Origin: Patescibacteria group bacterium | GTDB lineage: Bacteria; Patescibacteriota; Patescibacteriia; UBA2591; JABMQE01 | Direction: 5' to 3' | Assembly: GCA_018896645.1 (NCBI GenBank) | Contig: JAHIMF010000005.1 | Span: forward strand, 997-64,996 | DNA: 64,000 nucleotides | Part shown: positions 128 to 61,035 of the stretch, one piece after another | How the letters are laid out: every line of letters begins with the position of its first letter | Numbering within the stretch: position 1 is the stretch's first letter | The notes under the pieces: model-generated | The model's database searches: none | Told to the model about the DNA's origin: nothing | Seen by the model: only the letters and a program-made list of their open reading frames with translations | Made by a program: the position numbers and the translations under genes

Positions 128-2806
128 ATGAAGAAGAACATCGTTATAATCGGCTCTGGTTACGTTGGCACAGTCGTTGGCGCTTGTTTAGCTAAACTTG
201 ATCATTCGGTGACTTGTGTTGATAAAGACAGGAAAAAGATTACTAAACTTAAAAAAGGTTTTTCGCCTATTTATGAACCCGGTCTTGAAGAATTGCTTCG
301 GGCGAATTTGTATCAAGGCCGTTTGCATTTTACGACTTCTCTTCCCGATGCTCTAAAAAGCGCGGAAGTTATTTTTATTGCCGTTGGCACTCCATCTAAA
401 CCAGATGGGTCTTGTGAGATGAAATATGTTTGGCAAGTGGCGCATGAGATTGGTCGGCATCTTGATCACTATGCTGTCATTGTAGATAAAAGTACGGTGC
501 CAGTAGGAACAGCTGGGCGGGTTAGAAAAATTATAGAAAGTTATAAAAAAACCGAGTTTGATATAGTTTCTAATCCGGAATTCCAGCGCGAGGGTTCAAG
601 TATCAAGGATTTTTTAGGGCCGGACAGAATTGTGCTCGGAGCTGATTCTCCTAAAGCCAAAAGAATAATGCGCCAAGTTTATAAAAAAATAAAAGCTCCA
701 AAACTAATAATGGATATAGCTTCGGCCGAAATGGTTAAATACGCAGCCAATGCATTTTTAGCCACAAAAATTTCCTACATAAACGAGATTGCCAATATCT
801 GCGAACATGTGGACGCTGATGTTGATGTGGTGGCAGAGGGAGTAGGCATGGACAGGCGGATTGGCTATAGTTTTATGAAAGCCGGGCTTGGTTATGGCGG
901 TAGTTGTTTGACTGAAAATGAGATTATTATTATAAAAAAAGGAAATCAAATTAAATCGATCAAAATCAAAGATCTATTTAATCAAAAATATATAAAGTCA
1001 GATGTGTTGAGTTTTGACATTAATAAGAGAAAGGTTTTGTTCAGACCGATTATCAATATAACTAAAAGAAAATATAAGGGCGATATAGTGTTCATAAAAT
1101 CACGAATGAATAAGATGCTCTCTTGTACTGAAGATCATCCTTTCATTTCTTATGAAGATAGTAGGTTTAAATTGAAGTTGGCAAAAGATTTGTTGTTGAC
1201 TGATAGACTACCTTGTTTTACATCCATGCCTTATATTACAAAAGGGTCTGTAATTGATGTTATATCTATTTTGCCAAAGGATAAATTTGATTATAAAAAA
1301 GTAAGAGTTAGGCCAGTTGGTAAACAGTTTTTAGATGTAAAAGAAAGATTAAGTTCATTTAAAGCTTCCAGACTCAGGGACATCTTGCGCTCAAATTGTA
1401 TGAATCTCGAAGAATTTCTAAAGACTGAAATGAAAACAAAAGATAAAATTTCAAGAAAAGATCTGGTTCTTTTTACTTCAAGGGGCAAGACAACTTATTG
1501 CCCAGCGGTTATTAAAATTGATAATGACTTTTGTCGACTCTTGGGTTATTACATCAGTGAGGGGAATATTCATTATGAGAAAAATTTGAGAGGAACACGA
1601 GCGAGAATAAATATACATTTTAATTCAAATGAAAAAGAATACATTAATGATTTAACAAATATCTTTAATAAATATTCACTTAAATTTGGCTTGCGGGGTA
1701 GAAAAGACATCCCAACTAAATCTTTTTATTTTTCTTCAATTATTTGGGCTTATTTACTAAATAATCATTTAGGCTGTGGAAAGGATTCATATAGCGCGGA
1801 TGTACCTGATATGATTTTTTCCTTAGATAAAGATAAAAAGGCGGAGTTCCTCCGAGGATTATTTAGGGGCGATGGACATGTTGCTTTCCCAAAAGGCACT
1901 AATTCTGTTGTCTATGATTATGGATCAATAAGCTATAGTTTAACTCATAAGTGTATTTTGCTCTTTAATTCAATTGGCATTGTCCCGAGTTATAAGACTT
2001 CGATTTCGAAAAAATCAAGTGATTATGCTCATTTTTTTAGGGTTTCTACTAAAAAACAGATAGAAGCCCTGAGTAATTTTAAAGACAAAAAAACGCAAAG
2101 GAAGATTAATCAGGTATTAAGTAATTGCAAGGACATTAAATCAGTTGGATTTAAGCGAGTTAATTCTGATTTCTGTGCTGTTGAGATTAAAGAATTGAAG
2201 AAAGAATATAAAGAGGTTGATGTATATTCACTTGAGGTTAAAGATACTCAAACTTTTATAACCAGCCATGGTTTAATAGTCCATAATTGTTTCCCCAAAG
2301 ACGTTAAGGCCTTGCATAATATTGCGTTTCAAGATGGTTATGATTTTAAGTTGCTTAAGAGTGTGATTCGGGTTAATCAGCAACAGCGGGAATTGGTGGC
2401 TAATAAAGTAAAGCGAATGCTTGGTAGAAAACTAAAAGGCAAAACAGTGGCGGTTTTAGGGTTAGCGTTTAAAAATAACACCGATGATGTGCGCGAGTCA
2501 GCCGCTATTGATATTATTAAAATACTGCAAAAATCAAAAATAAAAATTCAAGCATATGACCCGATTGCCATAGAAAACGCTAAAAAAGTCTTGGACCGAA
2601 AAATTAAATATTTTACTAATCCCTACAAAGCAGTGACTGGTGCTGACGCGCTGTTAATAGCTACCGAATGGCCGGAATTTATAGATTTAAATTGGAAAAG
2701 GATTAAAAAATTGATGAAATGTCCGAAAATTGTAGATGGCAGGAATTTATTAGAGAGGGCAGAAACGGAGGGGCTGGGGTTTGAGTATTGTGGAGTAGGT
2801 AAATGA
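128..2806 (+). CDS. ugd: UDP-glucose/UDP-sugar 6-dehydrogenase interrupted by an in-frame intein; extein about 431 aa
   Basis: N-terminal Rossmann motif IIGSGYVGTVVGACLA. The catalytic motif GGSCFPKD is split as GYGGS / C...HN / CFPKD. The C-terminal dimerisation and UDP-binding region is intact (LGLAFKNNTDDVRES...EWPEF). Confidence 0.9.
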   Translation: MKKNIVIIGSGYVGTVVGACLAKLDHSVTCVDKDRKKITKLKKGFSPIYEPGLEELLRANLYQGRLHFTTSLPDALKSAEVIFIAVGTPSKPDGSCEMKYVWQVAHEIGRHLDHYAVIVDKSTVPVGTAGRVRKIIESYKKTEFDIVSNPEFQREGSSIKDFLGPDRIVLGADSPKAKRIMRQVYKKIKAPKLIMDIASAEMVKYAANAFLATKISYINEIANICEHVDADVDVVAEGVGMDRRIGYSFMKAGLGYGGSCLTENEIIIIKKGNQIKSIKIKDLFNQKYIKSDVLSFDINKRKVLFRPIINITKRKYKGDIVFIKSRMNKMLSCTEDHPFISYEDSRFKLKLAKDLLLTDRLPCFTSMPYITKGSVIDVISILPKDKFDYKKVRVRPVGKQFLDVKERLSSFKASRLRDILRSNCMNLEEFLKTEMKTKDKISRKDLVLFTSRGKTTYCPAVIKIDNDFCRLLGYYISEGNIHYEKNLRGTRARINIHFNSNEKEYINDLTNIFNKYSLKFGLRGRKDIPTKSFYFSSIIWAYLLNNHLGCGKDSYSADVPDMIFSLDKDKKAEFLRGLFRGDGHVAFPKGTNSVVYDYGSISYSLTHKCILLFNSIGIVPSYKTSISKKSSDYAHFFRVSTKKQIEALSNFKDKKTQRKINQVLSNCKDIKSVGFKRVNSDFCAVEIKELKKEYKEVDVYSLEVKDTQTFITSHGLIVHNCFPKDVKALHNIAFQDGYDFKLLKSVIRVNQQQRELVANKVKRMLGRKLKGKTVAVLGLAFKNNTDDVRESAAIDIIKILQKSKIKIQAYDPIAIENAKKVLDRKIKYFTNPYKAVTGADALLIATEWPEFIDLNWKRIKKLMKCPKIVDGRNLLERAETEGLGFEYCGVGK
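905..2287 (+). mobile_element. Intein of about 461 aa with a LAGLIDADG homing-endonuclease domain, inserted at the catalytic Cys of Ugd
   Basis: Starts with Cys (CLTENE) immediately after GGS and ends with HN followed by the +1 Cys of CFPKD. Two LAGLIDADG-like blocks are present (LLGYYISEGN and LRGLFRGDGHV). Removing it restores a normal-length Ugd. Confidence 0.8.
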
Positions 2807-2861
2807 ATATTACTAATTCGCACTAATCTGTACACGAATTGCACCAATCACTAATCCTTTT

Positions 2862-3902
2862 ATGAATAGTTTAGAAAAGAAATTTAAAACAAGATTGAAA
2901 AAAAACGAATTGATGAAAAATTATACGACTTTTAGAATTGGCGGACCGGCTAAGTATTTTTTGGAAGCCAAGTCGGGTGAGGAATTGGTGGAAGCGGTTG
3001 GGTTAGCAAAGGATGATGGATTAGATTATGCAGTGATTGGAAAAGGCAGTAATATTTTAGTGAGTGATCAGGGATATAATGGTCTTATTATAAAAATGTC
3101 GAATGTCGGACATCGGAAGTTAGATGACGCAAGGTTGCTAGTAGACGCTGGATTAGATTTGAAAAAGTTGTCACAGTTTGCGATGGAGAATGGATTAACT
3201 GGCGTAGAGTGGGCGATGGATGTCCCGGGAACAGTGGGCGGGGCTATAACTATGAATGCGGGTTGCTTTGGACAAGAGATGAAGGATTATGTGACAAAAG
3301 TTAAGTATTTAAATAGCCGAGCTTTGGATATTAAAAAAAGTCAAAACTCGAATATCTCAAATATTGCTCAAATTAACTCTAATAATAAATTTAATAAATT
3401 AATAAAAGGAATAAATAACAAACAATGTGAATTTGGTTACCGGGAGAGTATTTTTAAAAAGCATCCTGAATGGATAGTTTTAGAGGCAGAGCTGAAATTA
3501 AAAAAGGGCGATAAAAAGGATATAAAACAAAAAATCAAAGAACAGTTGAGTCAGCGAAGCCAGAAAATTCCCGGGAAGCCTTCAGCCGGGTCAATATTTA
3601 AAAAATATGAAATTCTTAAAGGTGAAAAGTTAAATGAAAAATTGGAGAGAATTTTGCAAAAAGAACACCCAGAGTTTATTAAAAACAATTATATTCCCGC
3701 AGGCTGGCTAATTGAGGAAGCAGGACTGAAAGGTAAAATAGTCGGAGGCGCACAGATTTCCGAAAAGCACGCCAATTTTATTGTTAACTTAGGTAAAGCA
3801 ACCGCTGAACAGATTGTTATACTTATTGCGATAATTAAACAGAAGGTCAGAAATGAATTGGGTATTCAATTGCAGGAAGAGGTGATGTATTTGGGGTTTT
3901 GA
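2862..3902 (+). CDS. murB: UDP-N-acetylenolpyruvoylglucosamine reductase (MurB) with a low-complexity N/K-rich insertion
   Basis: FAD-binding motifs NYTTFRIGGPAKYF and AVIGKGSNILVSD; C-terminal MurB domain (AGWLIEEAGLKG, GGAQISEKHANFIVN). Confidence 0.85.
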   Translation: MNSLEKKFKTRLKKNELMKNYTTFRIGGPAKYFLEAKSGEELVEAVGLAKDDGLDYAVIGKGSNILVSDQGYNGLIIKMSNVGHRKLDDARLLVDAGLDLKKLSQFAMENGLTGVEWAMDVPGTVGGAITMNAGCFGQEMKDYVTKVKYLNSRALDIKKSQNSNISNIAQINSNNKFNKLIKGINNKQCEFGYRESIFKKHPEWIVLEAELKLKKGDKKDIKQKIKEQLSQRSQKIPGKPSAGSIFKKYEILKGEKLNEKLERILQKEHPEFIKNNYIPAGWLIEEAGLKGKIVGGAQISEKHANFIVNLGKATAEQIVILIAIIKQKVRNELGIQLQEEVMYLGF

Positions 3903-5581: not shown

Positions 5582-5628
5582 TTTTATAAATTTTGTTTTT
5601 TTAAATAAATACGAGTGAGAAAATCGTT

Positions 5629-5762
5629 GTCAGAAATCAGAGAACAGTTACCGAAAACAGAAAGCTGAAGTCAGTTTTGGGGGTCGATAGTAAGACTTAA
5701 ATCATGAATTTCAGGACTGTTCTCTGATTTCTAATTTCTGAAACCGACTTCGGCTTTCTGTC
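5629..5762 (+). promoter_or_regulatory. Structured leader between rpsK and rpsD: two interleaved inverted repeats in pseudoknot topology
   Basis: L1 agaaatcagagaacagt (about 5631-5648) pairs with R1 actgttctctgatttct (about 5716-5732). L2 cagaaagctgaagtcag (about 5658-5674) pairs with R2 ctgaaaccgacttcggctttctg (about 5738-5760). The order L1-L2-R1-R2 is read directly from the sequence. Confidence 0.45.
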
Positions 5763-5812
5763 AACTGATTTCTATCAAATTTAAGCTCACAAATTGTGAT
5801 AATAAAAATATC

Positions 5813-7919: not shown

Positions 7920-7981
7920 TTGGAGATAATTGATAATTTTTTAAAAACTTTGTTTATCGCAATAAATTAACCTAATTGAGA

Positions 7982-8341
7982 ATGGTCAAATCTATAGAGC
8001 GAAAAAAACATACTATTGACGCGACAGGTAAAGCACCGGGCAGGTTAGCCAGCGGGATTGCCATAATTCTGCGCGGGAAAAATAAATCTAATTTTGTGCC
8101 TTATCTAGATCAAGGTGATTTTGTGATTATTGAAAATGTTGGTAAAATGAAATTTACTGGTAAAAAATTAGAACAAAAAGAATATTTTAGCCACTCTACA
8201 TACCCAGGTCATCTAAAACGCAGATCAGTTAAAGCAGTCTTTGCTGAAAATCCCGGCTTAGTATTACAGAAAGCCGTGAAAAACATGTTGCCAGCGAATA
8301 AGCTGCGGGACGGGATGATGAAGAGATTGGTTATTAAATGA
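7982..8341 (+). CDS. rplM: 50S ribosomal protein L13
   Basis: KHTIDATGKAPGRLASGIAIILRGKNK...; start taken at the ATG at 7982 (the ORF track begins at a TTG at 7976). Confidence 0.93.
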   Translation: MVKSIERKKHTIDATGKAPGRLASGIAIILRGKNKSNFVPYLDQGDFVIIENVGKMKFTGKKLEQKEYFSHSTYPGHLKRRSVKAVFAENPGLVLQKAVKNMLPANKLRDGMMKRLVIK

Positions 8342-8349
8342 GGCGATGA

Positions 8350-8520
8350 TTTATCTTATAAATTCACCTAATTCACCTAATTTCTAATTCACCTAATAAA
8401 AATCCAAATTCAAAATGTCAAATATCAAATCAATAACAAAATCTAAAATCCAAACTAAAAAAATTGACATTAAATCATTTGTCATTGATTTGATATTTTA
8501 AATTTGGATTTTTGAATTAC
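8350..8520. repeat. MITE-like AT-rich element: attcacctaat direct repeats plus the inverted repeat aaatccaaattcaaaatgtcaaatatcaaatca / tgatttgatattttaaatttggattttt
   Basis: The same terminal motif (ttcacctaatttctaat ... aattcaaaaatgtcaaa) flanks the 119-aa ORF at 43262-43745. Confidence 0.6.
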
Positions 8521-8529
8521 TTTATAATT

Positions 8530-10516: not shown

Positions 10517-10561
10517 CATGGAGCCATTCGCACGAATGGTTCCAGAGATAAAATATAAATT

Positions 10562-11653
10562 ATGAAGAAAATTTTACTAATTACATATTATTTTCCGCCC
10601 AAAATTGGCGGCGGCGAAGAATATCTCTATAATATATATAAACGACTGCCAGTAGATAAAGTGGTTGTTTTAGCCGATGACAAGGCGGGGAGCGCGCAGG
10701 TTAAGTTTGATAAACAGCAAAAGTTTAAAATCCATCGCACTAATTTTTTTGCTGGTAAATTGAAACCTACATGGCGGCCGCTAATAAAAATTGTCAAACT
10801 AATTATTCAAAAAGAAAATATCAAAGTCATTCATTTTGGCCATTATGCTCATTATATTTTGTTGGCCAGAATTGTGAAGCTGCCATATTTAATTTATATC
10901 CAGGGTTCTGATTTTACTTCTTATTCAAAATCTTGGTTTGGCAGGTGGCTGATGAAGTTCAACCTAAGTAAAGCAAAATTAATTATCACTACCAGTCAAT
11001 TTTTGAAGAACGGGGTTGTTGGGCTAGGCGTTGAAAATAATAAAATTGAGGTTGTGCACCCATGGTTGGATTTAGAAAAATATGATTTCAAAGCTGTCGA
11101 TGAAGGTGAGATTCGCGAATCTCACCTTCAAGTGAACGATAAAAAAATAATCCTCTCAGTCGGCCGCCTTCACAAAGTTAAAGGATTTGATTTAGTAATC
11201 AAGGCCTTGCCAAAAATTTTAAAACAAATCCCTAATGCAATTTATGTTATTGTTGGAGACGGCCAAGAAAAGGAGAATCTAAAAAATTTGGCTGTCAAAC
11301 AAAATATCGCAGACAAAGTTATTTTTGCCGGTGAAATTAAAAATAAAAAAGAACTTTCAAAATATTACGGGTCAGCCGATGTTTACGCTGGTCCATCAAG
11401 AGCAGAAGGATTCGGCATTGTTTTTCTGGAAGCCCGGGCATTTAGTTTGCCAATTGTGGCGAGTGATGTTGGGGGAGTGAAAGAGGCGGTTGAAGATGGG
11501 GGAGTGTTGATTAAGTCGGAAGATGTAGAAGATTTGAGTCAGAATATTGTAAAAGTTCTCAAAGAAAATAAAAAATATGAGCCGGATAAAAATTTTGATT
11601 GGGATAAAAAAATGGAAAAAATAAAAGAAATACTTTATGAAAATACGGTATGA
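10562..11653 (+). CDS. Glycosyltransferase family 4 (GT-B, RfaB-like)
   Basis: EGFGIVFLEARAFSLPIVASDVGGVKEAV matches the GT4 E-x7-E region. Confidence 0.85.
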   Translation: MKKILLITYYFPPKIGGGEEYLYNIYKRLPVDKVVVLADDKAGSAQVKFDKQQKFKIHRTNFFAGKLKPTWRPLIKIVKLIIQKENIKVIHFGHYAHYILLARIVKLPYLIYIQGSDFTSYSKSWFGRWLMKFNLSKAKLIITTSQFLKNGVVGLGVENNKIEVVHPWLDLEKYDFKAVDEGEIRESHLQVNDKKIILSVGRLHKVKGFDLVIKALPKILKQIPNAIYVIVGDGQEKENLKNLAVKQNIADKVIFAGEIKNKKELSKYYGSADVYAGPSRAEGFGIVFLEARAFSLPIVASDVGGVKEAVEDGGVLIKSEDVEDLSQNIVKVLKENKKYEPDKNFDWDKKMEKIKEILYENTV

Positions 11654-11701
11654 CCGTTTGGACGGTCATACTATACTAAATATTAAAATCCAAAAGTTCC
11701 T

Positions 11702-12022
11702 ATGCCTTATTACAACATTCGAAAACTCCAAGGAAAACATCAAAAAATCGTACTGAATGAATTCTATAAAGCAGTGGCTAGCCTAAAAACCAAAAAGGAA
11801 GTGGAAAAATTCTTTGCCGAACTCCTAGAACTTACAGAAATTACCATGCTCTCACGTCGCTTGATAGCCGCCGAAAAACTTTATCAAGGCAAAACCTTTG
11901 ACAAAGTAGCCCAAGAATTAAAGATGGGTAAAGATACAGTTACCAAGGTTAGTCACTGGCTTCAAGAAGGAGAAGGTTATAAATTAGTAGTTAAGAGGTT
12001 GAAAAAGTCTAAAAAGAAGTGA
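11702..12022 (+). CDS. YerC/YecD-like (Trp-repressor-related) small DNA-binding protein
   Basis: KEVEKFFAELLELTEITMLSRRLIAAEKLYQGKTFDKVAQELKMGKDTVTKVSHWL resembles the YerC/TrpR-like HTH fold. Confidence 0.5.
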   Translation: MPYYNIRKLQGKHQKIVLNEFYKAVASLKTKKEVEKFFAELLELTEITMLSRRLIAAEKLYQGKTFDKVAQELKMGKDTVTKVSHWLQEGEGYKLVVKRLKKSKKK

Positions 12023-12300
12023 AAGAATTTTAAACTATAATGAATTACCCCGCCGCCATTCGGCCTGAGCTCATAGCCGAAGGCAAGCGGACGGGGTATT
12101 AAAAATTCCCAATAAACTATAATATGACCGTCCAAACGGTCATACTATAAAGCTATGTTAATTTTGGTTTGATAGTTTGGACTGTCATACTATAATTATT
12201 TTAAAAAACTACTGAACTAATCACCTGAATAGTTCATTGCTAAAAATAAAAAAATCCCAATCCGTGAAAGTAAATTGGGACAAAATAATAGCGGGTATTA

Positions 12301-13976: not shown

Positions 13977-14924
13977 ATGAATGAAAAAGTTGATTTATCT
14001 ATAATTATTGTTTCTTGGAATGTCAAGGAATTGCTTAAAAAGTGCCTTGGCTCTATTTATAATAATCAAGGTGATTTGAAGCTTGAAATTTTTGTGGTTG
14101 ATAATGCGTCTAAAGATGGAAGCATCGAAGAAATTGAGAAACTAAGCCAGCCAGAGGCTGGTCAGCCTTTGGCTGAAAATAAAGAAATAAAGGACTTGAA
14201 TTTGAAAATTATTAAGAATAAGAAGAATTTGGGCTTTACTAAGGCGAATAATCAGGCGATAAAAAGAGCTCAAGGCGAATTTATTTTATTATTAAATCCA
14301 GATGCCGAGGTAATTAATGGCGCCTTGGAAAAGATGGTTGAGTTTATGCGTGAGCATAAAAAGTGCGGAGTGGCGGGGTGTAAATTATTGAATTCTGATG
14401 AGAGTCTGCAGCCATCAGTGCGAAGATTCCCAACATTTTGGTCGCAGGCGATGATAATGTTAAAATTGCATCATTTGTTTCCCAATGCCGGACCAATAAA
14501 AAAATATTTTGCCAAGGATTTTGATTATCGAGGTATGGGTCAAGGGACCCATACCTACCCGTGCGACCAAGTCATGGGCGCTTTTTTTATGATTCGGCGC
14601 GAGGTGATTGAAAAAATTGGAATGCTTGATGAAAATTTCTTTATTTGGTTTGAAGAAGTTGATTTTTGTAAACGGGTTAAAGATGCTGGCTGGCAAGTTT
14701 GCTATACACCGGAAGCCGAGATAATCCATCATGGCGCTCAAAGTTTTAAGCAAGTGTTGAGTTTTAAAAAACAACGAATGTTTAATCGAAGCTTGCTATA
14801 CTATTTCAAGAAGCATAAACCCTGGTGGCAATGGTTGGGGTTGATGTTGCTACAGCCAATAAGTTTAGGGTTGTCGGTGATAATTCAAATATTTGCTAAA
14901 AAAAGTAATAAAGTAATCGAGTAA
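13977..14924 (+). CDS. Glycosyltransferase family 2
   Basis: LSIIIVSWNVKELLKKCLGSI...FVVDNASKDGS...LLLNPDAEV; contains the palindrome gtatgggtcaagggacccatac at about 14533-14556. Confidence 0.85.
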   Translation: MNEKVDLSIIIVSWNVKELLKKCLGSIYNNQGDLKLEIFVVDNASKDGSIEEIEKLSQPEAGQPLAENKEIKDLNLKIIKNKKNLGFTKANNQAIKRAQGEFILLLNPDAEVINGALEKMVEFMREHKKCGVAGCKLLNSDESLQPSVRRFPTFWSQAMIMLKLHHLFPNAGPIKKYFAKDFDYRGMGQGTHTYPCDQVMGAFFMIRREVIEKIGMLDENFFIWFEEVDFCKRVKDAGWQVCYTPEAEIIHHGAQSFKQVLSFKKQRMFNRSLLYYFKKHKPWWQWLGLMLLQPISLGLSVIIQIFAKKSNKVIE

Positions 14925-14991: not shown

Positions 14992-16578
14992 ATGTTTGGA
15001 CAATTTTTTAAGAAAACATTACTTTTTGTTATTTTAGCAGAGCTTTTTTCATTGCTCGCTTTTTTGGTTCTCCAATTCATGCCTTTTGCCTTTTGGATTT
15101 TGGTGGGTTTATTTTTCATAATCTGTCTTTGGAAAATAGAGTATGGGTTATACCTGCTGTTAGCCGAGCTTTTTATTGGCTCCAAAGGTTATTTATTTTT
15201 TTATGAAGTGGGCGGTGTTCTCGTTTCAATTCGAATCGCTCTTTTTTTGGTGTTTATGGCGGTCTGGTTAAGTAAGACACTGATAGCCACGGATTTCATA
15301 CGGATAGCCACAGATCACGGATTTAAACTGACAAAATTCCATATTTTCAATAAAAGAATTATTCCAGCCAAAGGCTGGTCCGCCTCTGGCGGAACTTATT
15401 ACTTATTACTTATTACTTTTATAGTAATCGGATTAGCCAATGGATTACTACGAACTAGTCCATTCAACGATGTCTTTTTTGACTTTAACGCTTGGGTCTA
15501 CTTTGCCTTGTTCATACCATTTTTAGATATTATTAGGTCTCAAAAAGTTATAAATAACATTATCCAGATTTTCATCGCAGCCATTACCTGGATAGCCGTG
15601 AAGACAATAGTGGTATTTTATCTATTTGGTCATCAGTTTTTTAATATCACTCCATTTTACAAATGGCTTCGGGATTCCGGAGTGGGGGAGATAACTTTGA
15701 TGGCTGGTAATTTTTATCGAGTGTTTTTCCAGTCGCAGATTTTTATAATTATTGGCGCGATGTTACTTGTTGGTTTGTTAATTTATAATGTTAGGACTAA
15801 TAAAAGAAATTTATTACTTTATTATCAGCCAAAGGCTGACCAGCCTCTGGGTGGCTTTATTACTTTATTACTTTTTACTTCTATAATCATCAGTTTTGCG
15901 CGAAGTTTTTGGGTGGGCTGGATTGCTGGTTTGGGCCTACTCTTTTTATATTTAATATTGAAGGAAAAATTTTCTTGGCCAATGATTCTTAAAACAGTTG
16001 GAGCATTTTTGGTTTTTCTGATCATTTCGTCAGGAATAATTTTTGGAATCATGAAACTCCCGCCAAAAACAAGCAACAATGCTTCTTTTGCTAGCTTGGT
16101 TGAAAAGCGGGTTTCCACTATTGAAGCCGCTGGTTCAAGCCGAATAAATTTGCTAAAACCGCTTCTGCAAGAAAATTTAAAACATCCAATTTTGGGTGCT
16201 GGTTTTGGCGCCACGGTGACTTACCAAAGCAATGACCCGCGGATTAGAACCGAGCTTAATCCAGAGGGTTGGTATACAACTTATGCTTTTGAATGGGGAT
16301 ATTTGGACATTTGGTTAAAAATAGGGATTATCGGACTGGCTGTATATTTATTATTTATTTTGATGATTATGAAACAAGGACTGAAAAAGTTTAAGGGAAT
16401 TGAGAATAATGGTTTGAATAAGGGAGTGTGTTTAGGATTATTGGCGGGGATGGCTGTTTTACTAGTTATTAATATCTTTAGTCCTTATTTAAATCATCCC
16501 TTGGGGATCGGGTATATTTTGTTGTGCGGGGCGATATTTACATCATTGAAAAGTAAGGTGGACTATTCGGGCGAATAG
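14992..16578 (+). CDS. O-antigen polymerase/ligase-like (Wzy/WaaL family) polytopic membrane protein
   Basis: About 12 TM helices with a large periplasmic loop; sits within the glycosyltransferase cluster. Confidence 0.6.
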   Translation: MFGQFFKKTLLFVILAELFSLLAFLVLQFMPFAFWILVGLFFIICLWKIEYGLYLLLAELFIGSKGYLFFYEVGGVLVSIRIALFLVFMAVWLSKTLIATDFIRIATDHGFKLTKFHIFNKRIIPAKGWSASGGTYYLLLITFIVIGLANGLLRTSPFNDVFFDFNAWVYFALFIPFLDIIRSQKVINNIIQIFIAAITWIAVKTIVVFYLFGHQFFNITPFYKWLRDSGVGEITLMAGNFYRVFFQSQIFIIIGAMLLVGLLIYNVRTNKRNLLLYYQPKADQPLGGFITLLLFTSIIISFARSFWVGWIAGLGLLFLYLILKEKFSWPMILKTVGAFLVFLIISSGIIFGIMKLPPKTSNNASFASLVEKRVSTIEAAGSSRINLLKPLLQENLKHPILGAGFGATVTYQSNDPRIRTELNPEGWYTTYAFEWGYLDIWLKIGIIGLAVYLLFILMIMKQGLKKFKGIENNGLNKGVCLGLLAGMAVLLVINIFSPYLNHPLGIGYILLCGAIFTSLKSKVDYSGE

Positions 16579-16735
16579 TCCACTGATAAATTTTACGGTT
16601 TGACGGTTTGAACTGTCATGCCGAAAAAATTTGACCGTTTGGACGGTCATAGTATAGTTATGCAATTTGACATAATGAACCATCATACCGTTAAATTTTT
16701 GCAAAAAGAAAAAGGAACCATTCGCGCGAATGGTT
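16559..16735. repeat. Cluster of palindromic repeats: ggactattcgggcgaatagtcc, (t)gaccgtttggacggtcat x2, ggaaccattcgcgcgaatggttcc
   Basis: Perfect palindromes visible in the sequence. The same families recur at 10520, 11651, 12125, 58858, 61001 and 61339. Confidence 0.7.
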
Positions 16736-16748
16736 CCATGCTCATTAT

Positions 16749-17059
16749 TTATAAAATGAGATCAATCCGTGATAATACTTGCTTTATTGATAAATTCATC
16801 CCAGTGATGAGTTTTAAAAATTCCTTTGATGCCCTCCACATCTTCCGTGAAATTTTTCGGAAGTTGCCAGCCCCTTTCATGAACGTAAATAAACCCCATC
16901 TTTTCATATATCTATCCCCGGATTCACTCCTTTCCACCCCTGGTGTAGCAGGTTGTAAGGCGTGCCTTTCGGTAATATGATACCCGCATCATGACTCAAA
17001 TTATCTGGTCTATAAGAACAAACGCAAAACATGGTTTCTTCTTCTAATCTTCGTCTCAT
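16749..17059 (-). pseudogene. Possible frameshifted gene remnant in the 560-nt gap between the polymerase and the next GT2
   Basis: Minus strand: ATG about 17059 gives MRRRLEEETMFCVCSYRPDNLSHDAGIILPKGTPYNLLHQGWKGVNPGIDI then a stop. An overlapping second frame continues as ...YMKRWGLFTFMKGAGNFRKISRKMWRASKEFLKLITGMNLSIKQVLSRIDLIL. No family recognised. Confidence 0.25.
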
Positions 17060-18126: not shown

Positions 18127-18228
18127 TTTACTATTTATCATTTACTATTTACTATTCTTTTTGTGGAGGACCGAAGGTTAGTATATCAGTATAATTTTGA
18201 ATAGTAAATAATAAATAGTAAATAATAA

Positions 18229-23706: not shown

Positions 23707-23814
23707 AGATACTTAAAAGGGATAAGAAGGCTTGATGGGGCGGACATGGCTATCAGGCAAGAGGGCTATAAGGCGATACCGCCTTCTTATGCCTTCTTAT
23801 TTCCCTAAATTTTT

Positions 23815-24210
23815 ATGAAAAACAAAAGATTACAAAGTCATAAAAAAATGATTGTATGGCAAAGTATTGATCAACTTGACTTTATTGTGCAGAAAATTTT
23901 AAAAAGAATACCTCGGCATGAATTTAAAATGAAAAGTCAGATCGATAACGCGTCGGATTCTATGGGTTCTAATTTTGTAGAAGGTTATTATAGTGGCTCA
24001 TTGGGTGAGTACATGAGATTCCTTAGATATAGCAAAAGGTCAAACGCAGAGCTTCAAGAAAGAGTAAGACGAGTTTTACGAAAGGGTCATATAGATAAAA
24101 ATCTATACGATGAATTTGAAGACAGAGCTATTAAAACCATGTATTTACTTGACCGTTTAATTCAGTCATTAGAAAATAAGCAAAATGATGAAAAGAACAA
24201 ACCTTCTTAA
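23815..24210 (+). CDS. Four-helix-bundle protein (23S rRNA intervening-sequence protein family)
   Basis: QIDNASDSMGSNFVEGYYSGSLGEYMRFLRYSKRSNAELQERV matches the four-helix-bundle family consensus. Confidence 0.75.
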   Translation: MKNKRLQSHKKMIVWQSIDQLDFIVQKILKRIPRHEFKMKSQIDNASDSMGSNFVEGYYSGSLGEYMRFLRYSKRSNAELQERVRRVLRKGHIDKNLYDEFEDRAIKTMYLLDRLIQSLENKQNDEKNKPS

Positions 24211-24367
24211 TCTTCTTGCCCCATAGCCTTACCCGCCTCCTTATGCCTTCTTATCCCTTATAAAATTATTAGAAAATAAGCAAAATGATGAAAAGAACAA
24301 ACCTTCTTAATCTTCTTGCCCCATAGCCTTACCCGCCTCCTTATGCCTTCTTATCCCTTATAAAATT
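24168..24367 (+). repeat. Perfect 100-nt tandem duplication covering the 3' end of the 4HB gene and the frr leader; a 35-nt partial copy lies upstream at about 23779-23814
   Basis: The unit attagaaaataagcaaaatgatgaaaagaacaaaccttcttaatcttcttgccccatagccttacccgcctccttatgccttcttatcccttataaaatt occurs twice back to back. The upstream copy is ccgccttcttatgccttcttatttccctaaattttt. Confidence 0.9.
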
Positions 24368-24924: not shown

Positions 24925-25079
24925 AATCTTGAGATTGTAATTTCTAAAAACATAACCTGAATCGACTTGCAATAATTCCATTGCTCAATTGCTCCATTGT
25001 TCAATTGTTTTGTTATAACAATCGAGCAATTGAACAATGAAGCAATGAAAGTGTTTTATAGTTAAATTCCACTCGTAAA

Positions 25080-31663: not shown

Positions 31664-31806
31664 GGTTTGTATTGTTCGATAATAATTAACAAAATCAACA
31701 GAAAAGAAATATAGAAATTAAGAAATAGAGAAATAAAGGATTTGTTTGTTGGTAGCTGATATCCTTTTCCTATATTTCTTAGTTTCTTTATTTCTTAATT
31801 TCTATT

Positions 31807-35223: not shown

Positions 35224-35259
35224 TACAAAAAAACGGGCGTGAGAGCGCTTGTTTTTTTG
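35224..35259 (+). repeat. Direct repeat copy 1 (tacaaaaaaacgggcgtgagagcgcttgtttttttg), identical to 37162-37197
   Basis: Exact 36-nt match at both ends of the REC/hypothetical/small-ORF island. Confidence 0.9.
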
Positions 35260-37161: not shown

Positions 37162-37197
37162 TACAAAAAAACGGGCGTGAGAGCGCTTGTTTTTTTG
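37162..37197 (+). repeat. Direct repeat copy 2 (identical 36-mer)
   Basis: See copy 1. Confidence 0.9.
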
Positions 37198-41365: not shown

Positions 41366-43243
41366 ATGAAAAAGGCTATATTTATTATTTTAGGAATTAT
41401 AGTTATTATTGGTGTATCTCTTGGGGGTTACCGTTATTTTAAACGTGGAGAAAAAATTAATTTTGATTATATTATTACTGAAAGAGGTGAACTTGTCCAA
41501 GAGGTTAATATTACCGGTCGGATAAAGCCAGCCGAAAGCGTTGACCTGGCCTTTGAAAATACCGGAAAAATAGCCAATATTTATGTACAAATAGGTGATA
41601 AAGTAACCACGAGTCAAATCTTAATTGAAATAGATAATACTGATGCCAATGCCCAGCTGGCACAAGCTCAAGCCGGGGTGGATAGCTCTCAAGCTGAACT
41701 TATTCAATATCAAGCAACTTTGGAAGCCCAGCAAACAAAATTACTCGAACTAATCAAAGGAACAAGGCCCGAAGAAATTCAATTATCAGAAACAAAAGTT
41801 ATAAATGCACAAAAAGCATTGGCCGACGCCCAAGAAAACCTTAAAAACACTTTAAACAAAGCTGAAACCGAACTAGCCAAGGCCCAGCAAACAAAAACTG
41901 ATGCCGAGATAAACTTGGCCAACATTACGAGTAAATCTGGAAGTGATTTAGCCGACCTTTACAGCAAAGCAGGAGATATTCTTGATGATGCTTATGCTAA
42001 AGCTGATGATGCTGTTAAAAATAGAACAAGTGGAATCTTCACTGCTGGTTCTAATAAATTATCTTTTGCTACAACTAATTCACAAGCAAAGTCTGATGCG
42101 GAATCACAAAAGCCAGTGGTTGAAAACGCACTTAATGAACTTAATGCCTTAGTGTATAATCTTACCTCTGATTATATTGACCTAGACGAAGCTCTTGCAA
42201 GGGTAAAAGATTATTTAATTATTATAAAAGATTTTTTTTCTCGGTTAGACACCGCTCTTAGCAGCGCCGCTGATTTATCTCAAACAACACTCACTACTTA
42301 TCAAACAAACACTTACACGGCTCGCACCAATGTTAATACTGTTCTTTCCAATATTAATGTTCAACAAAACGCTATTACAACCCAAAACCAAACGAATCAA
42401 ACTAATATTGATACGGCTCAGTCTCAACTTAATACAACCAAAGCAGCCCTATCCTTGCAAGAAGCCGCAAACCAAAGTAATGTCTCCACAGCCCAAGCAG
42501 GTATTACTACGGCTCAAAATACTTTAGCCAGCGCTCAAGATGAACTCTCACTTAAGAAAGCTGGTTCCACAGCGGAACAAATTGCGGTTCAACGGGCAAT
42601 TATAAAACAAGCTCAAGCAAACACATCCGCCCAAAGAGCTAGAATAAAACAAGCTGAAGCAAATTTACAAAACTATCAAGCCCAAAAAGAAAAAACAACC
42701 ATTCGAGCACCTATGGATGGAATCGTAACAAAACAAGATGCTAAAGTTGGCGAAATTGTCTCGGCTTCCGCCAACATTATTTCCCTTATCTCGGAAAAAC
42801 AATTTGAAATTGAGGCTTTAATACCAGAAGCAGATACTGCTAAAGTTAAAGTCAATGATTTGGCAAAAGTTACTCTTGATGCCTATACTAATAATATTAT
42901 TTTTAAGGCTAAAGTAATTCGGATTAATCCTGCGGAAACTATGATTGAAGGCATGGCTACTTATAAAACGATATTACAATTTGCGGATGATGATGAACGG
43001 ATAAAATCCGGCATGACTGCTAATGTTGATATTTTAACTAATAAAAGAGAGAATGTTATTGCTATTCCCGGACGGGCTGTGATTTCCAGAAATGGCGGAA
43101 AAATGGTTCAAATAGTTAGAGATGATGATACGATTACAGAAGTAGAGGTAAAAACCGGCATTCGCGGTTCTGATGGTCGGATAGAAATTTTGAGCGGAGT
43201 TAGCGAGGGTTATAAAGTAATTACTTTTATGGAAGAAGAGTAA
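41366..43243 (+). CDS. HlyD-family periplasmic adaptor (membrane-fusion protein) with a very long coiled-coil hairpin
   Basis: N-terminal TM, biotinyl-lipoyl-like halves (GELVQEVNITGRIKP / IRAPMDGIVTK), about 330-aa Q/A/T-rich coiled coil, C-terminal beta-barrel. Confidence 0.8.
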   Translation: MKKAIFIILGIIVIIGVSLGGYRYFKRGEKINFDYIITERGELVQEVNITGRIKPAESVDLAFENTGKIANIYVQIGDKVTTSQILIEIDNTDANAQLAQAQAGVDSSQAELIQYQATLEAQQTKLLELIKGTRPEEIQLSETKVINAQKALADAQENLKNTLNKAETELAKAQQTKTDAEINLANITSKSGSDLADLYSKAGDILDDAYAKADDAVKNRTSGIFTAGSNKLSFATTNSQAKSDAESQKPVVENALNELNALVYNLTSDYIDLDEALARVKDYLIIIKDFFSRLDTALSSAADLSQTTLTTYQTNTYTARTNVNTVLSNINVQQNAITTQNQTNQTNIDTAQSQLNTTKAALSLQEAANQSNVSTAQAGITTAQNTLASAQDELSLKKAGSTAEQIAVQRAIIKQAQANTSAQRARIKQAEANLQNYQAQKEKTTIRAPMDGIVTKQDAKVGEIVSASANIISLISEKQFEIEALIPEADTAKVKVNDLAKVTLDAYTNNIIFKAKVIRINPAETMIEGMATYKTILQFADDDERIKSGMTANVDILTNKRENVIAIPGRAVISRNGGKMVQIVRDDDTITEVEVKTGIRGSDGRIEILSGVSEGYKVITFMEEE

Positions 43244-43261
43244 ACGAAATTTCTAATTTTT

Positions 43262-43745
43262 AATTCACCTAATTTCTAATAAAATTCTTAATTCAAAAAT
43301 GTCAAACAAAGAGAAAAAAAAGTATGACCAGAAATAAAAAAATTATTTTAATCTTAATTTTGACAATAGTTTTATTTTGTTTGTCACTTTTCTATGTGAG
43401 AAATGAAGTATGTTGTATGTTTGCTGGCATGAGACATCGTGGATTCCCTTATCAAATAATATCAATATCTAAGGTAACTGAGGATTTTGAAGAAGCGAAA
43501 AAAGTTTACTCCCTTAATGATTTTGAGCTTTTGAGTCGAGGTTGGAAGTTAAAAATAGATTCCGGCTTTGATCCGCTTTTCTGGAGTATTTCTTTTAATT
43601 TTATATTTTATTTAGCCATAAGCAGTGGATTAATTTTTATAGTCGAACGCATAAAACAGAATGAGAAAAAAATCAAAAAATAATTTTGAATTAAGCATTT
43701 AGAATTTTATTAGAAATTAGAAATTAGGTGAATTAGGTGAATTTT
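43262..43745. mobile_element. MITE-like element with about 45-nt terminal inverted repeats, carrying a 119-aa membrane-protein ORF, inserted between the adaptor and ATPase genes
   Basis: Left end ttaattcacctaatttctaataaaattcttaattcaaaa; right end ttttgaattaagcatttagaattttattagaaattagaaattaggtgaattaggtgaat is its reverse complement. Same end motif as 8350-8520. Confidence 0.6.
43324..43683 (+). CDS. Small membrane protein (cargo of the MITE-like element)
   Basis: N-terminal TM (IILILILTIVLFCLSLFYV) and C-terminal TM (FNFIFYLAISSGLIFIV). Confidence 0.5.
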   Translation: MTRNKKIILILILTIVLFCLSLFYVRNEVCCMFAGMRHRGFPYQIISISKVTEDFEEAKKVYSLNDFELLSRGWKLKIDSGFDPLFWSISFNFIFYLAISSGLIFIVERIKQNEKKIKK

Positions 43746-43750
43746 ATAAC

Positions 43751-44446
43751 ATGTCTCTCATAGAAGCCAAAAATTTAGAAAAAACCTATTATACTGATGG
43801 TATCGCTACTCCTGTTCTTAAAGGAGTTTCTTTTTCTATTGAACCAGGAGATTTTGTGGCTATTATGGGCCCTTCGGGCTCTGGTAAATCTACCTTGCTT
43901 CATATTTTGGGATTCCTGTCCCGTCATTCAGCAGGTGAATATCGTTTTGAGGGCAAAACTTTCGATGATTACTCTAAATCCGAAATTGCTCACGCTCGGA
44001 ATAAAAAAATGGGTTTTGTTTTTCAATCTTTTAATCTGCTTGCAAGAACAACGGTCATAGACAATGTAAAATTACCACTCTTATATTCAGATGTGCCAGA
44101 AAATGAATGGAATGATATGGCCTTAAAATTAATAAAAACCGTGGGCCTCTCCCACCGCATTAGCCACTTATCATCTCAACTATCTGGCGGGGAGCAGCAG
44201 CGCGTTGCTATTGCCCGCGCTTTTGTCAATAATCCACCAGTTATTTTTGCTGATGAACCAACTGGAAATCTTGACACAGCTACTGGAATAAAGATTATGG
44301 ATATTTTAAAGACATTTAATGAAAAACTAGGTCATACGATTATTTTAATCACTCACGAGTTGGATATTGCTCAAGGCACTAAACGAATTATCAAACTTGT
44401 TGATGGTAAAATTGCCAGTGATACAAAAGTTAATCATAATTTATGA
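43751..44446 (+). CDS. ABC transporter ATP-binding protein (MacB/LolD-like)
   Basis: Walker [10 protein letters not shown], signature [14 protein letters not shown], Walker [14 protein letters not shown]-loop ITHE. Confidence 0.92.
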
Positions 44447-45794: not shown

Positions 45795-46052
45795 ATGAGG
45801 CTTTTTTTATTTGCATTTTATAAATATATTAGCTACAATATAGACATTATGTATAATTGGGATTATAATTTAAAAAATGTTAACAAAAAAGACCCGGTCT
45901 ATATCAAATGGAAACTAGAACGGTTGATTAATTATGGTTTAAATGGCGAAAAAATTAAAAAAATCGAACTAAAAAAATATTGGAATCAAATAAAGATTGA
46001 TCCCGACAAACGAACATTTTTAAAAACAATTTTATGGCCGAAAAAATCATAA
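45795..46052 (+). CDS. Hypothetical small protein upstream of, and overlapping, the AbiEii-like gene (possible truncated antitoxin)
   Basis: ORF only; K-rich; overlaps the next gene by 19 nt. Confidence 0.3.
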   Translation: MRLFLFAFYKYISYNIDIMYNWDYNLKNVNKKDPVYIKWKLERLINYGLNGEKIKKIELKKYWNQIKIDPDKRTFLKTILWPKKS

Positions 46053-46690
46053 CAAAAGAACAGGAGCAATTCTTAGAGTATTTTAAAAAAAATAAATTGC
46101 TGGCCCAAGATTTTTATTTAACCGGGGGCACAGCTTTGGCTTTATTTTATTACCAACATCGCAAGTCCGAAGATCTAGATTTTTTTACTTCAAAGAAAAT
46201 ACCAAATTCAATAATTGATAAATCCATCAAAGATGTTAAAATTAAGCTTAATGCTAGCAAAGTTGAGTATAATCAATTGTATGATCGGCGAATTTATCAA
46301 TTCAAATTAACTAAAAAAGGTATTTTAAAAATAGAGTTCACCTTATATCCATTCAAAAATCTAAAAAAGCTTAAAAAAATCAATGGCGTATTTGTTGATA
46401 GCCTCTTAGATATGGGAGCCAATAAAATTATGTCTATAATGGATAGATTTGAGCCTAAAGATTTTTTTGATTTGTATTTTATGAAAAATGACTTTCGGCT
46501 GGAAAATTTAAGAACCGCAGCTCAAAAAAAGTTCGGTATTGAAATAGACCCGATAGCTTTAGTTAGTCGGTTCAACAAAGTCAAAGATTTAAGGATAATC
46601 CCCCAAATGATAAAAAAAGTTGACATAATAGATTTAAAAAATTATTTTCAAAAGTTTAACAAAAAAGAAGCTAAAATGTTTTTAGTTTGA
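46034..46690 (+). CDS. Nucleotidyltransferase-fold protein, AbiEii/DUF1814-like toxin family
   Basis: FYLTGGTALALFYYQHRKSEDLDFF matches the hG[GS]...S.D.D NTase motif of AbiEii-type proteins. Confidence 0.55.
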   Translation: MAEKIITKEQEQFLEYFKKNKLLAQDFYLTGGTALALFYYQHRKSEDLDFFTSKKIPNSIIDKSIKDVKIKLNASKVEYNQLYDRRIYQFKLTKKGILKIEFTLYPFKNLKKLKKINGVFVDSLLDMGANKIMSIMDRFEPKDFFDLYFMKNDFRLENLRTAAQKKFGIEIDPIALVSRFNKVKDLRIIPQMIKKVDIIDLKNYFQKFNKKEAKMFLV

Positions 46691-49814: not shown

Positions 49815-50780
49815 ATGCAGAAATCATCCAAACCAATCATAAAACATATACTGGATTTTTTAGAATTTTGTGAAGTTGAAAAAGGATTAACTCAAAAATC
49901 TATTGAAAATTATAAAAGATTTTTAGATAAATTTTTAAATTGGTTAAAAAATAAAAAATTACAAAACCTTAAACCTCACGAACTAACTGATAAACATATT
50001 TGGGATTATCGAGTTTATTTATCTAGATACATTGATCCTCGGACCAGCTCTTCCCTATCCCGGCGGACCCAGAACTATTACCTGGTAGTTCTAAGGGTTT
50101 TGTTGGCTTATTTTGCGGATAAAGACATTGAATCCCTGCCATCTGATAAGATTAAATTGCCAAAGCTACGAGACTCGGATAAGGCAATCAAATTTTTGAC
50201 AGTTGAACAAATAGAAAAGCTTCTCTCGGTTACGGACATCAAAACAAAAACCGGCCTGCGTGACCGGACAATCATGGAAGTTTTGTTCAGCACTGGTTTG
50301 CGAGTATCCGAGCTCACGAGCTTAAATCAAGATCAATTTAATCTTTCTTGGATAAAAAAGAATGCCAAATCTTATGAATTAAGCATCACTGGCAAGGGCG
50401 GCCGTACCCGTACGGTTTATTTTTCGCAACGGGCATTATATTGGCTAAATAAATATTTACAAAAGCGGATTGATAATGACAAAGCGCTTTTTATTCATTA
50501 TCATTCGCCTGATAAAGAAACCAAGTCTCATCGATTGACTCCCCGTTCAGTAGCGCGAATTGTGGCCAAATACACTAAAATGGCTGGCTTACCGATTAGC
50601 GCTACGCCCCATACTTTGCGCCATAGTTTTGCTACTGATTTATTAACTCGCGGAGCGGACATTAGAGCAGTCCAAGAGTTTTTAGGCCATAAAAATATTG
50701 TCACTACGCAGGTTTACACTCATGTAACTAACAAAAGATTACGGGATTTGTATGACAAGTTTCATAGCGGAAATAAATAA
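49815..50780 (+). CDS. Tyrosine site-specific recombinase (XerC/XerD-like)
   Basis: Catalytic R...HxxR...Y (ATPHTLRHSFATDLLTRGADIRAVQEFLGHKNIVTTQVYTHV). Confidence 0.88.
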   Translation: MQKSSKPIIKHILDFLEFCEVEKGLTQKSIENYKRFLDKFLNWLKNKKLQNLKPHELTDKHIWDYRVYLSRYIDPRTSSSLSRRTQNYYLVVLRVLLAYFADKDIESLPSDKIKLPKLRDSDKAIKFLTVEQIEKLLSVTDIKTKTGLRDRTIMEVLFSTGLRVSELTSLNQDQFNLSWIKKNAKSYELSITGKGGRTRTVYFSQRALYWLNKYLQKRIDNDKALFIHYHSPDKETKSHRLTPRSVARIVAKYTKMAGLPISATPHTLRHSFATDLLTRGADIRAVQEFLGHKNIVTTQVYTHVTNKRLRDLYDKFHSGNK

Positions 50781-50910
50781 AAATAATTCCAAAATCCAAA
50801 TTACAAATTATTCCAAATCAAATCCAAACAACAAACCCAAAAAATGAAATTTGACATTTGAGCTTTGAGCTTCATTTGGCATAATTTAAACTTTGAAATA
50901 ATTTGGATTT

Positions 50911-60999: not shown

Positions 61000-61025
61000 T
61001 AATGTTATGGAACCATTCGCACGAA
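61000..61025. repeat. Perfect 24-bp palindrome ggaaccattcgcacgaatggttcc (also at about 61338-61362, about 16709 and about 10520)
   Basis: Exact sequence recurrence in four intergenic sites. Confidence 0.85.
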
Positions 61026-61035
61026 TGGTTCCAAA

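Follow-up and report, generated by a model that had tools for sequence, protein, structure and literature searches.

Background

Two places in a 64,000-nucleotide stretch of a Patescibacteria genome (the whole stretch that was analyzed, hereafter the window; G+C 36.7%) share the same inverted sequences. One is the spacer between the ribosomal protein genes rplM and rpsI (locus A), where the repeats enclose no gene; the other lies inside a MacAB-like operon (locus B), where they surround a gene for a 119-amino-acid membrane protein. What kind of element are these sequences, and how did a membrane-protein gene come to lie within one of them? The initial annotation took them for a MITE-like family with an empty copy and a cargo-carrying copy.

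The known systems that bear on this question include the intervening sequences (IVSs) of rRNA genes. The IVS of Coxiella is 428-444 nt long, has a 28-bp terminal stem, carries an S23p ORF and is cleaved by RNase III (PMC4990558). IVS distribution is sporadic, horizontal spread has long been suspected, and the origin and mobility of these sequences, like the role of their PF05635 ORF, have been debated since the early 1990s (PMC4990558). Within CPR, 23S_rRNA_IVP ORFs are found at scattered insertion sites within 16S and 23S genes (PMC11270868).

In this report, we compared the two loci with each other and with related sequences throughout CPR/Patescibacteria. Our main reading, to which we give a probability of about 0.68, is that loci A and B are palindromic insertion elements, IVS-like and MITE-like, that are widespread in CPR, and that the cargo has been swapped at locus B. 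The literature searched contained no earlier description of this CPR family, of CPR word hairpins or of CPR MITEs.

Results and discussion

Two loci of the window share one repeat

The two loci are indeed linked by a repeat. The window contains three exact copies of the 19-mer AATTCACCTAATTTCTAAT, at 8370-8388 (+), 43262-43280 (+) and 43716-43734 (-), against 0.08 expected, and positions 8360-8389 are the exact reverse complement of 43715-43744 over 30 nt. In local alignment, the outer array of locus A reaches a score of 81, against a null mean of 18.9. The second motif quoted in the initial annotation, aattcaaaaatgtcaaa, did not hold up as a shared end: it is exact at 43290 only, occurs in the window no more often than chance would give, and has at 8406 a variant form that is offset by 1 nt and scored with 3 mismatches. 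Only two to three partial copies are visible in the whole 64-kb window, loci A and B included; they have arms in common and different inner parts.

Locus B sits between the genes of an HlyD-type adaptor (41366-43243) and an ABC ATPase (43751-44446), the latter followed by a MacB/FtsX permease; the window holds no rRNA, and this location is therefore not a 23S gene. The left terminal inverted repeat (43247-43298, + strand, approximately 52 nt) begins 4 nt 3' of the HlyD stop codon and runs from a word array through AATAAAAT to inner words. The right one (43684-43743, - strand, approximately 60 nt) starts directly after the stop codon of the cargo and stops 7 nt upstream of the ATPase ATG. The two arms are inverted copies of each other and align in blocks of 20/20 and 23/24 nt, with an indel of 7-9 nt between the blocks. 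The proposal that inverted repeats enclose the 119-aa ORF between adaptor and ATPase is therefore confirmed. The element measures approximately 500 nt, and its sole ORF (43324-43683, +) encodes the small membrane protein, with one predicted hydrophobic helix at each terminus. Its termini are complementary, so that a long stem closes the element, as in rRNA IVSs: when the whole unit is folded as RNA, a terminal stem of approximately 50 bp appears in both the minimum free energy (MFE) and the centroid structure (z = -3.6). The element is present in all three assemblies of this species, and the identity of the 119-aa ORF sequence between the MAG GCA_018894455.1 and an independent Logan assembly excludes an assembly artefact at locus B.

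Locus A (8342-8529) is a gene-less and one-sided copy that occupies the entire 188-nt, non-coding spacer between rplM (Ribosomal_L13, 7976-8341) and rpsI (Ribosomal_S9, ATG at 8530); its RNA folds with an MFE of -30.4 kcal/mol (z = -3.8). The outer word array (8360-8397, +) reads AATTCACCT AATTCACCT AATTTCT AATTCACCT AAT and is followed by the junction AATAAAAAT. Next comes an inner hairpin (8398-8518) made of xxCxAAT words, the arms of which (8398-8440 and 8478-8518) are 83% complementary over 41 nt. The TTCACCTAAT word array is found on the left side only (8360-8397); on the right of locus A, the inverted AGGTGAATT array is absent and a one-word remnant, GAATTAC, is left. The description of shared inverted ends at both loci thus stands for locus B, while locus A has only one outer arm, and the statement that two ends abut at 8350-8520 was imprecise, as what is found there is a left outer array plus an inner hairpin, with the right array missing. 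The left inner arm of locus A opens with AAT CCA AAT TCA AAA TGT CAA, which is similar to the start of the PF05635 ORF described below. Locus A is one of the gene-less derivatives of the family, with the look expected after internal deletion from a full-length element.

A family of elements with word-array ends in CPR

A scan of species-representative genomes retrieved the 19-mer in at least 120 stretches from 57 assemblies, with up to 10 matches per assembly. Among the matches listed, all lineages named to taxon belong to CPR (Magasanik-, Uhr-, Moran-, Nomura-, Taylor-, Sung- and Portnoybacteria, and Parcubacteria), and a few third-party MAGs bear other taxon labels. These loci comprise copies with and without cargo, as the initial annotation had anticipated.

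A common layout emerged from approximately 140 arms: an array of AATTxxxCT words, then AATAAAAT, inner words of the type xxCxAAT, a loop, and the mirror image, which closes with ATTTTATT and words AGxxxAATT. AATTCACCTAATTTCTAATAAAAT is an example of such a word array. Each end is approximately 50-70 nt long, the arms being defined by a regular expression and their limits being ambiguous in AT-rich, low-complexity sequence, and consists of 7-9-nt words (AATTCACCT, AATTTCT, AATTCCT and others), AATAAAAT and approximately 25 nt of inner words. The word arrays are AT-rich and non-palindromic, with 6% G in the left half and 7% C in the right half.

Among the matches listed, 77 of 87 adjacent arm pairs are arranged as a left arm followed by an inverted right arm ('+ then -'), a polarity that reverse complementing leaves unchanged. 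Arm spacing is bimodal in the same set: 14-205 nt in 70 pairs, which form short hairpins and hold no ORF, and 405-469 nt in 7 pairs, each of which holds one small ORF. The full-length form thus measures approximately 480-520 nt, and the gene-less copies, which are the majority, 70-250 nt. Directly after AATAAA, 172 arms show the consensus ATKYCNAAT (that is, ATG CCA AAT); gene-less copies therefore retain the first codons of the ORF, which is the look expected of internal-deletion derivatives. A transposase-free family with both gene-less and gene-carrying forms bears out the earlier suggestion of a small non-autonomous element that occurs with or without a gene. At gathering thresholds, no Rfam family matched the window.

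A hairpin related to the inner part of locus A lies at 50781-50910: it contains the inner words AAATCCAAAT and TCCAAAT, lacks the TTCACCTAAT outer arrays, and folds with z = -3.0; positions 8495-8523 match 50780-50808 at 86%. It directly follows a gene for an XerC/D-like tyrosine recombinase (49815-50780).

PF05635 genes are the usual cargo

The ORFs enclosed by arms in four MAGs (L004, L027, L053 and L083) are 69-82% identical to each other. Two of these ORFs were scanned directly and match PF05635 (23S_rRNA_IVP), and the subfamily matches TIGR02436 and counts over 2,100 homologues with E values below 1e-10. Four more homologues, picked by name, are all flanked by arms, which brings the count to eight of the eight examined: one in Moranbacteria (L136), one between atpD and atpC in Sungbacteria (L139), one between ybeY and dgkA in Uhrbacteria (L141-143), and one between two giant LamG-domain genes (L145). 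The native cargo is a four-helix bundle protein of approximately 125 aa (range 120-130), with one gene per element. The idea of ends that can carry just any gene consequently gives way to a usual cargo, the PF05635 gene, although one element (L059) carries an unrelated 115-aa protein. A single copy is linked to rRNA (L055), and it lies in a tRNA-23S spacer, outside mature 23S; a link of the family to mature rRNA was rejected on this ground.

In 10 genomes, all 10 cargo genes are oriented like their neighbors. This bears on the idea that locus B is an inverton, in which a recombinase would flip the enclosed gene on and off at the inverted repeats. The element is indeed a short segment flanked by inverted repeats, and the tyrosine recombinase gene (49815-50780) lies 6 kb downstream with the related hairpin right behind it. 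Nevertheless, the invariable direction of the cargo argues against flipping, 70 of the 77 pairs have neither a gene nor a promoter-like site to flip, and the recombinase has the ordinary domain pattern of XerC/D. The arms, imperfect over 50-70 nt, are moreover unlike typical inverton repeats. We consider an inverton very improbable.

Replacement of the native ORF at locus B

Locus B still holds the beginning of a PF05635 ORF. The first 15 or so codons (43284-43328, +) lie in the same register after AATAAA as in intact elements and read ATT CTT AAT TCA AAA ATG TCA AAC AAA GAG AAA AAA AAG TAT GAC, the counterpart in L083 being ATG CCA AAT GAT AAA ATG TCT AAA AAG TAT GAT; the corresponding peptides are MSNKEKKKYD in the remnant and MPNDKMSKKYD in intact elements. 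Collinearity with the PF05635 ORF stops after TATGAC, and the ATG of the cargo lies within that hexamer. On the right side, from the stop codon outward, locus B is again collinear with PF05635 elements of other genomes. As approximately 15 codons of PF05635 are kept and the sequence then switches, the membrane-protein gene took the place of the native ORF in an element that already existed. The body of the PF05635 gene from about codon 15 onward was exchanged for the unrelated 119-aa gene while both ends were kept intact, and the junction may have formed through the ATGAC microhomology. We hold with high confidence that loci A and B are members of the CPR family and that locus B is a PF05635 element with a replaced ORF.

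The 119-aa protein matches no Pfam or NCBIfam family, so that the PF05635 feature is missing from this copy. It has 22 homologues with 65-87% identity and 39 invariant columns, and is therefore the product of a real gene. An AlphaFold2 model (mean pLDDT 64.5, pTM 0.32) was too poor for a fold search. Homologous genes are placed after alaS, beside a pair of genes of 74 and 98 aa, or before yceG; arms were sought around them at five loci in four unrelated contexts, and none was present. This speaks against the earlier proposal that MITE ends mobilized the 119-aa gene as a unit.

The junction between macA-like and macB-like genes was compared with that of deep relatives, since a metagenome scan combined with a homologue search for empty sites gave adaptors of at most 58% identity and nothing closer. 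In one distant relative (L129), the gap between the HlyD and ABC genes is 6 nt. In the two closest operons (L133 and L134, 54-58% identical), the junction holds other hairpins and no gene.

Dispersal of the elements

One relative genome, JAUPKF01, has six copies of approximately 175 nt at unlinked loci, 85-95% identical over their full length and with sharp ends, which indicates that the element family has dispersed. One of these copies contains a nested 30-nt GC-rich hairpin insertion, and nested or tandem element copies occur in L027 and L145.

Traces of the insertion process were sought at the borders. In 80 elements compared with permuted flanks, direct repeats of 4 nt numbered 7 against 5.6 expected, those of 5 nt numbered 5 against 2.2 (40 of 500 permutations reached 5), and those of 6 nt numbered 1 against 0.6; the search for target-site duplications, suggested by the initial annotation, thus revealed none above permutation. 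Single candidates such as TTATA (locus A) and TTTATA (L027) are weak in AT-rich DNA, and a logo of the flanks is AT-rich and displays nothing further. The search for a cognate transposase gave a similar outcome: approximately 50 ORFs scanned in the 64-kb window include no transposase, reverse transcriptase or RAYT gene, and neither a transposase nor a reverse transcriptase lies between arm pairs in approximately 1 Mb of fetched CPR loci. A single arm pair spaced by 1.7 kb encloses an ordinary 409-aa gene, with no features of a transposase by eye. Carriage by phages was rejected, as 2.9 million viral contigs contained no copy of the 19-mer. Close relatives showed no presence/absence polymorphism, the three assemblies of the species all carrying the element.

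We consider it likely that these elements are mobile DNA or have been so in the past. The family would spread, or would once have spread, as DNA, leaving no obvious target duplication, and a trans-acting protein would recognize the word arrays by their sequence rather than by the pairing of the arms. Identical 19-mers over deep CPR lineages could instead reflect a conserved host function.

The most conventional form of mobility would be that of a classical IS-derived MITE or mobile insertion cassette, for which a DDE transposase encoded elsewhere duplicates the target and the 119-aa gene is a passenger. The terminal inverted repeats, the small size and the lack of an internal transposase are those of a MITE, near-identical copies are dispersed in a single genome (JAUPKF01), and several cargos are known (PF05635, the 119-aa gene and the 115-aa gene of L059). 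In addition, the arrays of short sites at both ends resemble the ends of Tn7- or Mu-type transposons, which contain multiple transposase-binding sites. Such an origin nonetheless appears improbable to us: target-site duplications do not exceed chance, no transposase was found within arm pairs or in the window, the long form regularly carries PF05635 instead of a transposase, and the 119-aa gene is found in other contexts without such ends.

Elements at the RNA level

Elements lie between co-directional genes in 48 of 54 cases, with gaps of 0-20 nt on either side. As they fill the stop-to-start gaps of such genes, and as their cargo is oriented like the operon, they must be co-transcribed with the host genes, and the stem will form in the operon transcripts. 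The pairing itself bears no mark of co-adaptation: inner halves in their native combination have no folding advantage over chimeras of different elements (-0.150 versus -0.148 kcal/nt), and arm mismatches are of the G-U type in 78 cases and of the A-C type in 76, so that there is no G-U excess on the sense strand. Selection on an RNA stem of the transcribed strand was rejected on these mismatch counts. It is the words that are constrained, not their pairing, which fits recognition by a protein better than a selected RNA stem. A promoter or terminator role was also discarded, as at neither locus did consensus scans exceed chance.

If the parallel with the IVSs of rRNA holds, RNase III may cut the stem of approximately 50 bp in the operon transcript. 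Such a cut would free the cargo mRNA and uncouple the expression of the macA-like and macB-like genes, leaving both genes intact. Processing of the element by RNase III is a tentative proposal, which we regard as possible and somewhat doubtful.

Structured spacers are frequent in this genome: 18 of the 43 spacers of the window fold far better than their shuffled versions, with many different word vocabularies. A second, GC-rich palindromic family of the window sits in frame inside two genes. The abundance and variety of such spacers is one argument for regarding the elements as immobile intergenic RNA hairpins owned by the host, similar to REP/BIME or ERIC sequences once these are co-opted, which would act as processing, stabilizing or insulating stems, change by slippage in place, and occasionally receive a small gene in their loop. 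In relatives, the macA-macB and macB-permease junctions hold differing word hairpins; the stop-to-start gaps in strings of co-directional genes are tightly filled; and the same words are kept across deep CPR lineages. Copies of 175 nt that are 85-95% identical at unlinked loci, in contrast, cannot arise in place, and a conserved protein gene is part of the unit in eight of eight cases. Chimeras fold equally well and the transcribed strand has no G-U bias, contrary to what selected stems would lead one to expect; no Rfam family is matched and promoter or terminator consensus sequences are not above chance. Both parts of this explanation, the host-owned hairpins and their growth by slippage with occasional capture of a gene, seem to us quite improbable.

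A further RNA-level explanation concerns translation. The right arm contains AGGTGA, which resembles a Shine-Dalgarno sequence and stands 10 nt before the ATPase ATG at 43751, and the left arm contains TCACCT, which resembles the 3' tail of 16S rRNA; a hairpin could thus mask the ribosome-binding site and control translation. Many elements do end 0-20 nt upstream of a start codon. However, even AGG occurs at positions -20 to -3 in only 8 of the 47 long genes of the window; the organism therefore hardly uses Shine-Dalgarno sites, and the masking role was rejected. Other word families of the same genome show no such resemblance, and locus A has the TCACCT array without an AGGTGA partner. Translational control is, in our estimation, hardly credible.

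Comparison with known systems

Several known systems share part of the features of these elements. The IVSs of 23S rRNA (Leptospira, Coxiella burnetii) have the same size (approximately 430-520 nt), a terminal stem that closes the element, a sporadic distribution, and in their loop a single PF05635 ORF of approximately 120-130 aa, of which locus B retains only a remnant. Unlike these IVSs, locus B lies in a protein-coding operon, not in helix 25 or 45 of rRNA, and its ORF has been replaced; the CPR family as a whole differs in having ends made of sequence-conserved arrays of 7-9-nt words, and abundant gene-less derivatives.

Correia/NEMIS elements of Neisseria and the ERIC, RUP and BOX MITEs are likewise short, non-autonomous and intergenic, with inverted ends and many copies per genome, and MITEs of the Correia type also fold as hairpins in operon transcripts; RNase III cleaves the Correia hairpins. 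Correia elements, however, duplicate TA, whereas no target-site duplication was detected for the CPR elements. MITEs of this type are confined to one genus, while the CPR end sequence spans class-level lineages, and the CPR family differs further in that no IS parent was found in the loci searched and that its long form carries a PF05635 gene instead of a transposase. The mobile insertion cassette MIC231 of Bacillus cereus combines IS-like inverted ends with a passenger gene that varies by copy, and has no transposase of its own, a structure that the CPR elements fit. It has the ends of IS231, and its movement by this IS in trans generates a duplication; for the CPR element, in contrast, neither a cognate IS nor a duplication was found.

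REPINs and REP-BIME sequences, which are mobilized by RAYT proteins, resemble the CPR elements in their inverted arms, long hairpin, intergenic position and dozens of copies. REPINs make no target duplication, and none above permutation was seen for the CPR elements; in REPINs, the arm sequence is kept for recognition by a protein and not for pairing, as is proposed for the CPR arms. REP units are nonetheless GC-rich, species-specific palindromes of 20-40 nt, whereas the arms considered here are arrays of AT-rich words that recur across CPR. The palindromic elements of Rickettsia (RPEs) offer another parallel, that of a reduced genome with several small palindromic families settled at the least harmful sites. 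RPEs are 100-150 nt long and gene-less, whereas the CPR element is intergenic and able to carry a gene.

In design, the element resembles an rRNA IVS, and in population structure a MITE or a mobile insertion cassette. It belongs to neither class, as it lies outside rRNA and has lost its PF05635 ORF here, and as neither a target duplication above permutation nor an IS parent was found in the loci examined.

A bolder interpretation, which we deem unlikely, is that the PF05635 'intervening sequences' constitute a distinct, self-propagating class of palindromic mobile elements, whose four-helix protein would bind the words of the ends and promote insertion. With equal reserve, any site at which a transcript can bear a removable hairpin would be open to insertion, both in rRNA and in operon spacers, and the PF05635 protein would be a relative of Avd, the nucleic-acid-binding accessory protein of diversity-generating retroelements (DGRs). 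If this were true, the CPR family would be the first with its full life cycle visible, comprising complete elements, MITE-like derivatives formed by deletion, nested insertions and replacement of the ORF by a host gene.

Conclusions

The family described here amounts to hundreds of copies outside rRNA that combine the same ORF and the same stem design, some of them in essential operons such as atpD-atpC. It could make the mobility of IVSs, the recognition of their ends, the function of the PF05635 protein and the harmless excision from a transcript testable. For genome annotation, it suggests caution, as small ORFs wedged in conserved operons may be the cargo of such elements. For CPR bacteria, it means that a noticeable share of their scarce intergenic DNA consists of palindromic elements that are able to bring small accessory genes into operons.

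Other copies and cargos of the element

Beyond locus A (8342-8529), the gene-less copy, and locus B (43247-43743), where the 119-aa membrane-protein gene stands in place of the PF05635 ORF, there is a third type of cargo between the arms of this hairpin family, found in a Parcubacteria MAG (L059, 3472-3999): a 115-aa protein, which had no match in Pfam or NCBIfam. In locus L055, a complete 23S rRNA gene (377-3299, minus strand) has another gene-less copy (3820-3901) about 520 nt upstream of it; this copy lies downstream of a tRNA and is therefore within the rRNA operon spacer, outside the mature rRNA.

The window itself contains a second PF05635 (23S_rRNA_IVP) gene (23815-24210, within a region spanning 23713-24367), located between frr and a gene for a BNR-repeat protein. 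This PF05635 gene is enclosed by a 50-nt inverted repeat (23713-23762 and 24214-24263) made up of words of the CCTTCTTAT type, which differs from the arms of loci A and B and has the reverse polarity, the G-rich arm coming first. A complete hairpin (23713-23806, z = -5.3) lies upstream of the gene, and the gene's 3' end and the right arm are spanned by an exact 100-nt tandem duplication (24168-24267 and 24268-24367).

Other repeats and inserted sequences

A GC-rich double hairpin, CAGCCAGAGGCTGGTCAGCCTTTGGCTG, is present at 14128-14202, 15365-15404 and 15799-15873. It resides in frame within a GT2 glycosyltransferase gene, where it inserts ...SQPEAGQPLAE..., and twice in frame within a Wzy/O-antigen-ligase-like gene, a situation that recalls the Rickettsia palindromic elements. 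A hairpin element in another CPR genome (L034) contains a similar GC-rich double hairpin. A REP-like palindrome, GGAACCATTCGCACGAATGGTTCC, recurs at the ends of genes (10520-10559, 16714-16753, 61009-61048 and 61344-61383), with degenerate copies at 12213 and 58852. The palindrome ATGACCGTTTGGACGGTCAT has five copies, within 11640-12194 and 16590-16656, two of which (11648-11675 and 12118-12145) enclose a 106-aa Trp-repressor-like ORF (11702-12022), another small gene enclosed by repeats. A 36-nt terminator-like hairpin, TACAAAAAAACGGGCGTGAGAGCGCTTGTTTTTTTG, is identical at 35224-35259 and 37162-37197, 1.9 kb apart. Finally, the UDP-glucose/GDP-mannose dehydrogenase gene (128-2806) is split by an intein (residues approximately 274-720) with a LAGLIDADG homing-endonuclease domain.

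Intergenic hairpins and translation starts

Among window spacers of 50-400 nt, 18 of 43 folded with a z below -2.5 (5582-5812, 18127-18228, 24925-25079 and 31664-31806, among others). Many of these 18 are long AT-rich hairpins, each with its own vocabulary of 7-9-nt words, such as TCAGAAA, ATTTACT, CAATTGN and GAAATAA; different AT-rich word hairpins occupy the same operon junctions in L133 and L134, the two closest relatives of the HlyD-ABC ATPase operon. Shine-Dalgarno-like sequences almost never precede the start codons of the 47 window ORFs of at least 150 aa with an ATG start (AGG at -20 to -3 in only 8), and word arrays often reach the ATG directly.

Neighborhood of the membrane-protein homologues

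Across loci L123-L127, the genes for homologues of this 119-aa protein repeatedly have two paired, conserved ORFs of 74 and 98 aa as neighbors; L123 carries two tandem copies of the homologue, and AbiEii-type toxin genes lie close by in L127 and likewise at 46034-46690 of the window. Taken together, these features suggest that the homologues reside in a variable accessory-gene neighborhood.
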